From positions 15,624,001 to 15,688,000 of the forward strand of contig NC_043007.1 in assembly GCF_006345805.1 (NCBI RefSeq): DNA of 64,000 bases, written 5' to 3'. Below the pieces are notes generated by a model. That model was not told where the DNA came from, did no database searches, and saw only the letters and a program-made list of their open reading frames with translations. This DNA is from Octopus sinensis. Taxonomy: Eukaryota. The first letter of the stretch is position 1. Every line of letters begins with the position of its first letter. A program made the translations under genes and the position numbers. Positions 5,790 through 58,944 of this stretch are shown piece by piece.

Positions 5790-6102
5790 ATTGCAGCCTG
5801 GAAGGTGTTTCTAAGCCATTTAAGAAACACAAAAACCGTTACATTCAACATTTAAATTTAATTTGCCAAAATATTTTCGTCGCTTGAGACGCGCGACCTG
5901 TTCACTGACAAAAATATCGTGCTAACAGGTCGCGGTCTCAAAGCGACGAAAATATTTTGACAAATTAAATTAAATGTTGAAGTGAATCTAACGGTTTTTG
6001 TGTGTTTCTAAATGGCTTATAAACACCTTCAACGCTGCAACTGTTTTCGTTCCAGCACACGATCTCAGATCAAGTCACTGCTATGCAAGTACATCTCTGT
6101 AC
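5790..6102. mobile_element. HHR-bearing inverted-repeat element (Penelope-like pLTR remnant) between (TA)n tracts
   Basis: Arms ~5790-5902 and ~5925-6040 are reverse complements; unique tail 6041-6102. Confidence 0.7.
5862..5912 (-). ncRNA. Minimal type-I hammerhead ribozyme, G3:C8 core variant
   Basis: Minus strand reads TTTGTCA-GTGAACA-G-GTCGC(9 nt loop)GCGAC-GAAA-ATATT-T-TGGCAAA: 7-bp stem I, 5-bp stem II, palindromic stem III. Confidence 0.7.
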
Positions 6103-6199
6103 TATATATATATTTAATATATATATATATGTATATTGGTAAAAACAGTAAGATAACAAAAGAAAGAAAGAGACCTCAATATTATGTAAATAGAGGAAA

Positions 6200-6591
6200 T
6201 CTTTATATATAAAAGTGAGGTTTGTGTCTGTCTCCTACGATTAGATTCCTAACTACTCCCACATTTTGCGGTTGCAGTTTAACCAAAACCGGGTATCTTA
6301 TAGTCGTGATTCATATCGAGACCGTCTGGGTATTAGCGCGCGTCTACGATGAGTCTACGATTTAAAAAAAATTTACCATCAATTTTTCCATTTTTAATCC
6401 ATTTTTGACATATATAAGGGAAGTAACTCTCTAAAATTTATTATTAAATCTCAGAACGTAAAAAGCTACAGTTACACCCCTCCCCCTTTGTGGTTAGCCA
6501 TATTGAGATGGCTATTATATTTTACATCTCTAAAAATGCTTATATAATTATTTCCCTTACAAACTCGAGCAACGCCGGGCGATACTGCTAG
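6200..6591 (+). mobile_element. Non-autonomous Helitron-like element
   Basis: 5' TCTTTATATATAAAAG; 3' CTCGAGCAACGCCGGG hairpin followed by CGATACTGCTAG then T. Same family as 35177-35577 and 55576-55970. Confidence 0.85.
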
Positions 6592-6717
6592 TTTTATTAT
6601 AAATGCAAAACAACATAGCGGAGGGATTGACGTAAGCTTAAATAATAAACCGCGATAGGTGAACCGTGATAGGTGAACCGCGATATGGCGAAGGATTGCT
6701 GTCAACATATGTGGATG

Positions 6718-6876
6718 GGAAGCACTCCGTCGGTTACGACGACGAGGGTTCCGGTTGATCCGAATCAACGGAAGAGTCTGCTTGTGAAATTGACGTGTAA
6801 GTGGCTGAGAACTCCACAGACACGTGTACCCTTAACGTAGTTCTCGGGGATATTCAGCGTGACACAGAGAGTGACA
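6718..6876 (-). mobile_element. Family-A SINE 3' fragment
   Basis: Tail type 1 only, cut off by (CATA)n. Confidence 0.85.
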
Positions 6877-7430
6877 TACATACATACATGCATACATACA
6901 TACACAGACACACACATACATACATACATACATACATACATACATACATACATACATACATACATACATACATACATACATACATACAACATACATACAT
7001 ACATACATACATACATACATACATACATGCATACATACAAACAAACGAAAATATCCTACTGTTGATGTTGAAATTCCAATGAAGAAGCCTTGGATCTAGT
7101 TTAGAAACCGGTTCTTTCTCTATTGGCAAGAAATTTTGAAATAAACTGAATAATGACATGCATACAACATACTAATAAAGATGACATCAACTTTATCATT
7201 GCCAACAGTGAGTGAGTTTCTTGTAGATATTATCTTTGCATGAGGTATAATGCAGGGGCAAGAATTACCTCGTACAGGATAAGAAAAATGAAAACACTCG
7301 AAGACAAAGTTGTTTGTTTTGAAATTGGTCAAAAGAATATAGGCAAAAGTTAAAAATTAAAGCAGCCACCAAGTTCAAACACAATAGGAAATATATCATT
7401 GTGTGGAACACATGAAAAACTGGACACCAG

Positions 7431-55220: not shown

Positions 55221-55575
55221 CCAAAAATTGAAACCAATATTAATATTCGTCAAACAGACGGATGAACAAATCCAGTTATATGAAAATAGAGACCCAGTAG
55301 TAGGAAAAATGGCAAGAGTTGCCACTTATCCAACAAATGGCATCTCTTTAGGCAGAAACCCAAATTTACAAATGAATCTCTATTTTATATTGCTAATTCT
55401 CCTAGAAGCATACGTTTGATAGTTTCCCATTAAACATTTCATAGGTATGGAAACTTTTATTGGTACGCCATGTGAATAAAGAGATTAAAGAACTTGCTTC
55501 TAGGTAATCTTCAATTACCATGTGTGTTTAATTTTATGGAGCTATGGATATTTCCAATATATATATATATATATA

Positions 55576-55970
55576 CTAGCAGTATCGCCCGGCGTTGCTC
55601 GGGTTTGTAAGGGAAATAACTATAAAGCATTTTTAGAGAGTTATAGCCAAAAATAGCAAAAAATGCATTAAAAATGGAATAAAATTGATGGTAATTTTAT
55701 TTTTAAATCGTTGACTCATTGTAGACATTTTTAGAGAGTTACTTCCCTTATATTTAAAAAAATATGCATAAAAATGGAAAAAAAATGATGGTAAATTATT
55801 TTTTAAATCGTAGACTCATCGTAGACGCGTGCTAATACCCAGAAGGGCTTGATATGAATGACGACTATAAGATACCCGGTTTTGGTTAAACTGCACCGCA
55901 AAATGTCGGAGTAGTTAGGAATCTAAATCGGAGTAGACAGACACACAACCTTTCTTTATATATAAAAAGA
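55576..55970 (-). mobile_element. Non-autonomous Helitron-like element
   Basis: Antisense copy of 35177-35577. Confidence 0.85.
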
Positions 55971-57625
55971 TATATGTGTGTGTATGTGCGTGCGTGTGTG
56001 TGTTGAGGCACATGGACTAGTGGTTAGAGCAGCGGACTCGCGGACGAGGGATCGCAGGTTCGACTCTCAGAACGGGTGATGAGCGAAATACCTAAGCTCC
56101 ACGCGGCATATCTTATCGAATCGGAAAGAATGAAAGGCAAAGTCGATCGCGACAGAATTTGAACTCAGAACGTAAGGAGTCACAATAAATGCCGCTAAGC
56201 ATTTTTTGTCCGGCGTGCGAACGATTTTGCCAGTTGGCCGCATATATATTTGTGTATAATAAAATGATGAATAACACATTTTTCAAAACGTCCATGTATA
56301 ACTTATGGATGTTCTGAAAGAACAAATCAAATATTATTTTAAAAATCCGTGGCGTACTTAGACATAACTTCTGACGCTCAGTACACTTAGGTACTTCTTA
56401 CAATACGCAAGAGCACCTTAGTCTTGCACCAGTGGGCCCAGTTACTTTTTGTGAGGCGGTAGTGGTCCTAGATACTCCTTACGATGTGCCATTGCGCCTA
56501 GAAAATCCTCGCTGCACTTCAGTGCATATAGATACGGCGAACCAGTGTCCTCTACTCCCAGAACACTCTTGCGGCAAGCCAGTGCTCCCAGTTACTCCCT
56601 TACAACGGTCCAGTGCGCCATGATACAGCATACATCCTGCTGCGTCACACTAATTGAAAACCGTTGATAATGAGGCGCCCTCGTCGATATTCTGTTATAG
56701 CGTATTACAGAACTTGAATTCCTTTTGATATATTTTATTCTGATCTACAGAAACAGCACCAGCAAGCAATATTATTTTACGTAGGCAAACCTGTTTGCTG
56801 TACGTCTATAGAAAAAAAGTGGAGGCATCTACATTGCTACTCCTTTTGTAATGTTATCCTATTTAAACATACAAAATACTGTATAAGTCAAACAAAGAAA
56901 GAAGCTTGGAATATAAATAATCATCTTCGTTATGTTGTTGTTCTGGTACTCATGCTGTAGTGTGATAGAGTTCAGTTTTTTTTTTTGTTTTGTTTTCTTG
57001 TTTCATGTTGCTTCTTTTTTTTTCTTTCATTTATTTTCTACGTATTTTTTTTTTGTTCTCTTTATCAGAAAGTAACTTCTGAAAGTGACTAATAACTAGG
57101 TTTCGCTTTCATAAGTAAACAAGAGCAAACGTTTTACACTGCTGCGAAAACTTCGATTAAAGGGGAGAAAAATCACTATTTAGAAAAGGAAAGAAACAAT
57201 AATTAGAGATCGAAGATGTTTATTGAGAACGTTAGATGACTAGATAGTTATTATGTACCTTATTATTAACTCGCTGCTGTTCGCTTTCAGAAAGACTTGG
57301 CCATTTTTAGGTAGAACTTGAATAATACCTATTGATCTTACGTTAATTACACTGTATCTTTCATATAACATGCACATAAAAGATGCAATTTAGTGTAGAA
57401 TGGATTTAAGGTTTTAATAACGTCGAACGAACTGGTGTCGACAATTACCTATCTTCTCGTGAACAGCAGCTTTATCAGCAGTTAGCGTTGCCTCTACACT
57501 TTTCTAATAGACTGAAGAGCACTTCTTCGTTTCACGAGAATAGAATCTAAATTCATGGAAGCAAAGCTTAGACGTACGCATCAAATTTATATAAGCTTAA
57601 CCAAACTTTTATGATTTGCTTGTTT

Positions 57626-58304
57626 CTGTGATCGGACTGCGGCTTTGCTGGAGCATCGCATGGAAAGGCTTAGTAATCGCACTGCGGCTTTGCTGGAGCA
57701 TCGCATGGAAATGTTTAGTGATCGCACTGCGGCTTTGCTGGAGCATCGCATGGAAAGGTTTAGTGATCGCTCTGCGGCTTTGCTGGAGCATCGCATGGAA
57801 AGGTTTAGTGATCAGACTGCGGCTTTGCTTTAGCATCGCATGGAAAGGTTTAGTGATCGGACTGCGGCTTTGCTGGAGCATCGCCTGGAAAGGTTTAGCG
57901 ATCGCACTGCGGCTTGGCTGGAGCATCGCATGGAAAGGTTTAGCGATCGGACTGCGGCTTGGCTGGAGCATCGCATGGAAAGGTTTAGTGATCGCACTGC
58001 GGCTTTGCTGGAGCATCGCATGGAAAGGTTTAGCGATCGCACTGCGGCTTGGCTGGAGCATCGCATGGAAAGGTTTAGTGATCGCACTGCGGCTTTGCTG
58101 GAGCATCGCATGGAAAGGTTTAGCGATCGCACTGCGGCTTGGCTGGAGCATCGCATGGAAAGGTTTAGTGATCGGACTGCGGCTTTGCTGGAGCATCGCA
58201 TGGAAAGGTTTAGTGATCGCACTGCGGCTTTGCTGGAGCATCGCATGGAAAGGTTTAGCGATCGCTCTGCGGCTTTGCTGGAGCATCGCATGGAAAGGTT
58301 TAGT
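57626..58304. repeat. 45-bp minisatellite (about 15 copies) inside an old family-C SINE
   Basis: Unit TGATCGCACTGCGGCTTTGCTGGAGCATCGCATGGAAAGGTTTAG; flanks continue as the antisense family-C tail to ~58440. Confidence 0.93.
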
Positions 58305-58944
58305 CGAACAAATTGACCCCTGTACGTATTCCTTTATGATCTGGTACTTATTCTATCGGTTCCTTTTGGCGAACCGTTACGCTACAGTGACGTAATGAGA
58401 CCAACACGAGTTGTCAAGCGGTAGTGAGCACAAATACAAAACACGCACGCACACACACAGTCACACGGACGCACACACACACATGTGCACAAACGCCCAT
58501 GTATGTATTAATGTTTTGTTCCATGTTATAATAGAAACAATTTCCCATTAAGCTGAAGGGTTACACAATAACTTTGATGGAGAGCAAATTCATTCGAAGA
58601 GTCGTTGGCTAGCTAAGCCATAATCGAACTGTCCGATGATGGCTTAGCTGATAGAAACTTCGAAGTCAGTGTCAGTACTATTCTTGTTAAAAAATTATAT
58701 GTATGTATGTATACATACATATATATATATATATATATATATATACACATACATATATAAAGATGTTACACACACACACACACCACACACACACACACAC
58801 ACACACACACACATATATATATATATATATATATATATATATATATATATATACATACATATATCACATATATATATCAAAATGTAACTACATGTGAATC
58901 GTTGGCGATGTTCTTCCTCCGTCTTCCTTTTCTATTGAACAAAT

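Follow-up and report, generated by a model that had tools for sequence, protein, structure and literature searches.

We analysed a 64,000-nt stretch of the Octopus sinensis genome (assembly GCF_006345805.1, contig NC_043007.1, positions 15,624,001 to 15,688,000 of the forward strand; hereafter the window), in which hammerhead ribozyme folds lie close to (TA)n microsatellites. The folds are carried by several families of repeated elements, which include 3' ends of Penelope-like elements (PLEs), in part pseudo-long terminal repeats (pLTRs), and tandem units without an open reading frame (ORF). The principal copies are as follows.

4530..6603, plus strand: multicopy composite of ~2.1 kb carrying the window's family G copy, with flanks common to other copies
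5792..6102, both orientations: family G, an inverted pair (5792-6039) plus the 3' tail of a Nematis-like PLE
5862-5912, minus strand: family G hammerhead, G3-C8 core, predicted cut after 5869
9730..9862, plus strand: short family D1b copy with a decayed hammerhead (9789-9823)
11505..12248: family A, a head-to-head pair of 3' ends, both truncated 5', from a putative Hydra-clade PLE
11537-11574, minus strand, and 12105-12142, plus strand: family A hammerheads
13110..13375, plus strand: family E, inverted tail (13110-13200) and main copy with hammerhead 13230-13275 (A9G here)
15413..16063, minus strand: family B, a tandem retrozyme without an ORF, here 1.6 monomers of 404 nt each
15576-15645 and 15972-16039, minus strand: family B hammerheads, the second without C3
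23030..23177, minus strand: family D2 copy, hammerhead 23105-23140 (A6C here)
26860..27235, minus strand: family C, part of a tandem unit of ~545 nt without an ORF, its hammerhead at 27034-27110
36692..36865, plus strand: family D2 copy, hammerhead 36740-36775 with A6U core
37313..38054: family F, a 564-nt tandem unit without an ORF, in inverted arrangement
37808-37868, plus strand: intact family F hammerhead
41790..42000, minus strand: family D1b copy, hammerhead 41890-41925
47190..47460, minus strand: family D1, a solo pLTR from a Neptune-like PLE of ~6.2 kb
47272-47307, minus strand: family D1 hammerhead, U4C core

Folds were sought with a type-I descriptor (stem I of at least 4 bp, core, stem II, GAAA, palindromic stem III, UH), and 30 local dinucleotide shuffles of the window served as control. 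Five loci had the exact core, against a shuffle mean of 0.03 and a maximum of 1; with up to one core mismatch there were eight loci against 0.33, and with up to two there were ten against 1.3. A 200-kb sample from outside the window, made up of 20 arbitrary 10-kb pieces of the 2.72-Gb genome, gave three exact-core hammerheads (0.05 in shuffled sequence), and five when one core mismatch was allowed (1.65 shuffled). The three-way junction with hammerhead core boxes is thus above chance in the window and in the sample. The motif occurs genome-wide, at a density that the three matches put very roughly at ~15 per Mb; the density in the window, which was pre-selected, is ~5 times that of the sample (p=0.02). 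The original prediction that the hammerhead folds are real was therefore upheld, and by-eye patterns, used descriptively and with no test, placed a fold at all 15 of the sites it had named. The fold began within 1 nt of the named coordinate at 14 of them, and site 11206 falls within its fold. That list had missed the intact fold at 37808-37868 (plus strand) and a half fold at 41162-41186 (minus strand), and its site 22242 stayed unconfirmed. In an Rfam scan of the window, no hammerhead family was among the best 150 of 270 matches. Site 40648 was rejected as a hammerhead, having core boxes but neither stems nor further copies.

The canonical core CUGANGA was found at six of the 15 named sites (11206, 11537, 12105, 15575, 22242 and 27034). 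The other cores are GUGAACA at 5862 (G3-C8), A9G at 13230, a core without C3 at 15971, U4C at 58628 and 47272, A6U at 36740 and A6C at 23105, with further alterations at 9790 and 41891. By family, the canonical core is present in A, B, C, E, F and I and absent from G (G3-C8), D1 and H (both U4C) and D2 (A6U). Site 5862 had been taken as plain CUGANGA, which it is not. The D sites had been called variants; their cores are indeed altered, but the changes are fixed family-wide. Stem III does not make a hairpin by itself in any family, and stems I and II are recovered when monomers of G, B and C are folded by minimum free energy (MFE). Stem covariation, looked for as had been suggested, is present in few independent events, namely in stem III of family E and, between G and its sister lineages, in stem II and the 3-8 pair. 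Among 18 family E copies, the stem III palindrome was CAAUUG in 14 and CGAUCG in four, with no single changes, the pattern that pairing of stem III across two molecules would give.

Families A, D1 and G consist of 3' ends, truncated on their 5' side or inverted, that come from autonomous PLEs with reverse transcriptase (RT) and GIY-YIG endonuclease (EN) domains. The carriers had been described as ORF-less, and this held within the window, where five PLE queries gave 0 tblastn matches; genome-wide it failed for A, D1 and G, for which the autonomous PLEs sharing their ends, proposed as a check, were found. Their parents have a single ORF with both RT and GIY-YIG, the criterion for an EN+ PLE. 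Elsewhere, family A copies run on at their 5' side into an ORF that encodes RT and, at its C terminus, GIY-YIG; a Hydra-type ORF lies within 1.5 kb at 16 of 30 loci, and one locus (L034) holds a full-length copy arranged as pLTR-ORF-3' untranslated region. The frames of this locus and of L031 carry RWK, DKT and CxCX5C and are close to the published Hydra alignment; judged by these motifs and the likeness of the alignment, family A belongs to the Hydra clade. A first look at the genome gave 1,666 candidates, the best copies being 96-99% identical. The arms of family A differ between copies, from 75 to >1200 nt, and the tail is on a single arm; in the window copy the left arm stops at the proximal terminus and the right arm bears the tail.

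Family D1 has the arrangement pLTR-ORF-pLTR at two loci (L109 and L110), and its core CCGACGA (U4C) is present in 26 of 26 copies. None of five PLE frames matched Pfam at E<=0.001. A looser cut-off gave weak D1 matches only, to RVT_1 (E 0.002) and GIY-YIG (E 0.005), both under the curated cut-offs. Family D1b (sites 9790 and 41891) is related to D1, as its 41790..42000 copy is 76% identical to the D1 pLTR over ~100 nt. The family G ribozyme sits ~1 kb 3' of a GIY-YIG ORF (153 ORF matches), the G3-C8 fold lies downstream on the same strand in nine of 11 close G endonuclease copies, and one G copy has a 1042-aa open frame with RT and EN. Tandems of pLTRs or partial units, inverted 5'-truncated copies and an optional tail are all present.

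Families B, C and F are head-to-tail ORF-less monomers of 404-564 nt, each with a type-I hammerhead. Arrays of B reach nine monomers with a fixed 3' end, and the start points of 38 partial B monomers are uniform along the unit (Kolmogorov-Smirnov p=0.57). The tandem structure of C was seen as one pair spaced by 545 nt and as end-to-start continuity. The longest Met-ORF is 63 aa in B and 34 aa in F, and GC content is 34% and 33%, respectively. In three of four presumed-RNA runs a contig joins the end of a B monomer to its start, a joint that tandem DNA yields as well. No PLE ORF was found for B, C, F, D2 or E. D2 is the most abundant family, an exact 30-nt pattern giving 15,690 genome matches and its reversed control 0. 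Among the first 100 matches listed, position 6 was U in 98, C in two and A in none, and position 7 was U in 46, A in 24, G in 15 and C in 15.

The claim that the carriers are flanked by TA repeats also held. (TA)>=4 lay within 250 nt 3' of the cut site at seven of eight descriptor hits, compared with 30% of random window positions (p=0.001); the window has 20 (TA)>=5 arrays per 10 kb, compared with 12 in the 20 arbitrary pieces. Against a null for (TA)n proximity of 13% within 250 nt, (TA)n was found within 300 nt in 42/44 copies of A, 24/26 of D1, 37/49 of D2, 15/16 of E, 14/17 of F, 13/14 of C, 62/68 of G and 20/42 of B, interior B monomers being without it. Copies abut (TA)n at fixed 3' points, usually two per family; their 5' ends vary, and inverted partners are common. 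The spacing between cut site and (TA)n is bimodal: ~37 or 105 nt in A, ~85 or 145 in G, ~104 or 190 in E, ~190 or 280 in F and ~170-210 or 270 in C. These two termini past the cut site match the internal RT start sites that define PLE tails (PMC11167929). TA was also found within 300 nt of the variable 5' end, in 31/55 copies of D2, 15/19 of E, 33/51 of G and 5/6 of D1b, which favours insertion into pre-existing arrays. The family C copy is lodged in a TA array within a SINE-like (short interspersed element-like) repeat (26457-27395, with an internal TA/TG array), and SINE-borne microsatellites may be the main landing sites. Annealing of an internal (UA)n run to the target found no support as a general rule: B has no such run, having 2-7 nt of TA-like microhomology only.

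The core of family G is GUGAACA, which equals C3G plus G8C, that is, the 3-8 tertiary pair with its partners swapped. A pattern for this G3-C8 core gave 3,702 exact genome matches with several loop-II variants, and its reversed control gave 0; patterns with double changes at positions 3 and 8 gave four matches only, and none had C3-G8. Site 5862 was at first read as a ribozyme-less miniature inverted-repeat transposable element (MITE), with a hammerhead in 0 of 16 copies at up to one core mismatch, and the swap overturned that reading. Two sister lineages, with ~50% protein identity to G, have a hammerhead at the equivalent position. In one the core pair is U3-A8 with a compensated stem II (three of three loci), and in the other it is C3-G8 with A9C, core CUGAUGC (three of three near-identical loci, L227, L229 and L230). 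G and its sisters show covariation in stem II and in the 3-8 pair, and the occurrence of C-G, U-A and G-C in the three lineages suggests that the pair has been kept by selection. The swap likely keeps the G ribozyme working. In the composite that holds the window's G copy, a captured PLE fragment, part of a SINE and a tandem repeat of 103 bp have been amplified together, and since the flanks of this G copy are shared with other loci it multiplied passively. The end of the composite, with a hairpin and CTAG, is presumably a Helitron-like 3' end.

Taken together, we conclude with high confidence that the carriers are PLE 3' ends and ORF-less tandem units set against (TA)n, with hammerheads predicted to cut as dimers; insertion at (TA)n was likely the work of PLE RT/GIY-YIG proteins. 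As published PLE biochemistry suggests, the endonuclease would nick TA-rich DNA, and RT would begin at either of two internal sites 3' of the ribozyme, giving the optional tail, and stop early, giving 5' truncation. Families B, C and F may be copied in trans from circular or multimeric RNA. Cleavage would be dimeric and perhaps protein-assisted, and selection would have kept the 3-8 tertiary pair. Several observations weigh against this interpretation. The ribozyme is absent, in the stretch fetched, from four of four diverged (65-71%) G endonuclease copies and from two of 11 close ones, the G stem III duplex is very weak (-0.2 kcal/mol), the second sister of G combines A9C with a non-palindromic loop III, and monomer MFE folds miss the drawn fold of D1 and D2. 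No parent of E was found among the loci examined and none of D2, for which four close pairs and three 5'-extended copies had no PLE ORF; B, C, E and F have no significant sequence in common with six autonomous 3' ends. In addition, the termini counts for G include 16 copies amplified within one composite, and the labels Neptune-like (D1) and Nematis-like (G) come from motifs and visual comparison of alignments.

The carriers had been predicted to be a non-autonomous population. For B, C and F, which are ORF-less and tandem, this stands, and the PLE-type minimal type-I hammerheads with palindromic stem III in many families, predicted alongside, were borne out. That all carriers are non-autonomous retrozymes is, however, very unlikely: the window has no PLE ORF and D2 and E have no parent found, as such a reading would have it, but A, D1 and G continue in other copies into linked RT and GIY-YIG ORFs, which refutes it for these three families as truncation products of full-length autonomous PLEs, and D1b resembles the D1 pLTR. 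The same ORF linkage refutes the idea that the inverted-repeat elements G, A and F are TA-targeting DNA transposons (MITEs) with incidental folds, to which we give almost no credence. They are foldback-like with TA on their flanks, and the window G copy did spread within a larger composite; yet arm lengths vary by copy (in A as given above), the tail is on a single arm, and the interior codes for RT and GIY-YIG and no transposase. It is also unlikely that the (TA)n was made or lengthened at insertion by PLE RT, through telomerase-like slippage, instead of being the target. Some termini (D1, E and F) do go on with TA-like element bases, and the window exceeds random DNA in TA arrays and in hammerheads, but TA lies at variable 5' ends too, the array in which C is lodged is part of a SINE-like repeat, and a (TA)n insertion preference is in print for Hydra and Naiad.

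The role of the ribozymes is a separate matter, on which two readings are each possible and each held tentatively. In one, octopus PLEs amount to a natural test of the hammerhead core: G3-C8 is the working ribozyme of an autonomous PLE with thousands of copies, its sisters employ U3-A8 and C3-G8, A6U with a free position 7 (N7) is active too, in more than 15,000 copies, and PLE ribozyme catalysis is under selection. In the other, the ribozymes are dead or dispensable passengers that only mark the RNA by structure or for protein binding, and the changes in the cores are decay that has been tolerated; we regard this with the same reserve. D2 reached at least 15,690 exact copies with A6U, a position at which changes give low activity (PMC3088659), D1 has U4C in all copies, and insertion in vitro did without cleavage (PMC11167929). 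Against decay, position 7 of D2 is free while the remaining core is held, the 3-8 pair is Watson-Crick in three sister lineages, which argues for selection on the active fold, and the E stem III palindrome covaries.

Hammerheads in PLEs, non-LTR retrozymes, the bias towards (TA)n and the tails have all been published (PMC4209133, PMC7229834, PMC8557442, PMC11167929), and Hydra members, including Hydra-1_Obim of octopus, were described with (TA)n insertion and hammerheads (Craig et al. 2021, PMC8557442). Family A is like Hydra-clade PLEs in RWK, DKT, CxCX5C, C-terminal GIY-YIG, 3' hammerhead and (TA)n insertion, but differs from Hydra-1_Obim in protein, ribozyme stems and loop III and is therefore a separate family (PMC8557442). 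The D1 and G parents resemble Neptune/Nematis PLEs (CX2-5CxxC linker) in having RT, linker and GIY-YIG as well as inverted truncated copies, tails and TA bias; unlike these, they have cores fixed for U4C (D1) and G3-C8 (G), their clade being assigned by motif (PMC8557442). The folds resemble minimal PLE hammerheads (Cervera & de la Pena 2014, PMC4209133) in being type I with stem III short and palindromic or absent, in an extra nucleotide after A9, in occurring solo and as opposite-strand pairs, and in natural U3-A8; U3-A8 is reported there, whereas G3-C8 or A6U is not in the text examined. Families B, C and F are like animal non-LTR retrozymes (PMC7229834; bioRxiv 10.64898/2026.07.22.740005), in being low-GC ORF-less head-to-tail units with a single type-I hammerhead in each monomer. 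'Octopus' does not occur in the main text of PMC7229834, and B, C and F are known here from DNA. Two fixed 3' termini past the ribozyme with an optional tail, and AT-rich targets, recall internal RT initiation in Poseidon_Ac (Frangieh et al. 2024, PMC11167929); the tails here, as read from sequence, are ~60-95 nt compared with 30-40 there.

The main yield of the window is thus a set of undescribed octopus families within a known system, and its value lies in the cores. U3-A8, A6C and U4C are known in nature with reduced activity (Perreault et al. 2011, PMC3088659), and G3-C8 is a laboratory rescue mutant (PMC8495972, PMC11167929, PMC3884650). The text of PMC3088659 examined, figures excluded, names neither G3-C8 nor A6U, and the literature searched gave no natural case of either; Lunse 2017, Seehafer 2011 and Hammann 2012 may report them. 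Nor did a literature search for octopus hammerheads add to the papers cited. Natural G3-C8 in an abundant PLE family is likely a new core variant, though it may already be known. Surveys based on CUGANGA would skip G and D2 entirely, at least 19,000 motifs in the genome. The families bear on whether PLE hammerheads have any role: Naiads lack them, and they may be parasites (PMC8557442); PLE insertion in vitro did not need cleavage (PMC11167929). A 15,000-copy A6U family points either to a new active variant or to dispensability.

Further sites and remnants in the window are the following.

11180..11300, minus strand: family I copy whose hammerhead (11198-11245, long stem III) is decayed; locus L147 holds the intact form
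22243..22281, plus strand: site J, CUGAUGA...GAAA with poor stem I, unconfirmed
23375..23480: inverted remnant of another PLE 3' end; upstream of its relative in locus L139 lies a U3-A8 hammerhead
41132..41253: inverted remnant of a further hammerhead family, truncated within the ribozyme; loci L070 and L173 hold intact forms
58595..58695, plus strand: site H, hammerhead 58629-58671 with U4C, a perfect 8-nt palindrome and a short inverted duplicate

Among the loci examined, though not genome-wide, no second copy of sites 22242 and 58628 was present. The terminus matching 23375-23480 belongs to a Poseidon-like PLE end at ~917-960 of L139, with the U3-A8 hammerhead. Inverted-repeat elements without a recognisable hammerhead, possibly PLE ends truncated past the ribozyme, lie at 23837-24159, 40977-41101 and 59701-59975. 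At least 12 further families of hammerheads, whose stems are unrelated and whose stem III is palindromic, were met incidentally in locus flanks (L006, L026, L057, L070, L076, L077, L082, L134, L151, L170, L178, L186, L228 and L232). PLE ORF remnants were seen in five of the 20 arbitrary 10-kb pieces (L181, L182, L186, L187 and L192), so PLEs make up a large fraction of the genome. Broken frames at 34167-34795 (minus strand) and 42173-42547 (plus strand) are, from their motifs, presumably mariner/Tc1-like transposases. A 5S rRNA match at 62479-62589 (minus strand; 50.7 bits against an Rfam gathering threshold of 38) may represent a gene, a pseudogene or the head of a SINE, and at 57628-58304 a 45-bp tandem repeat is present 15 times (94% matches) inside a SINE-like element.

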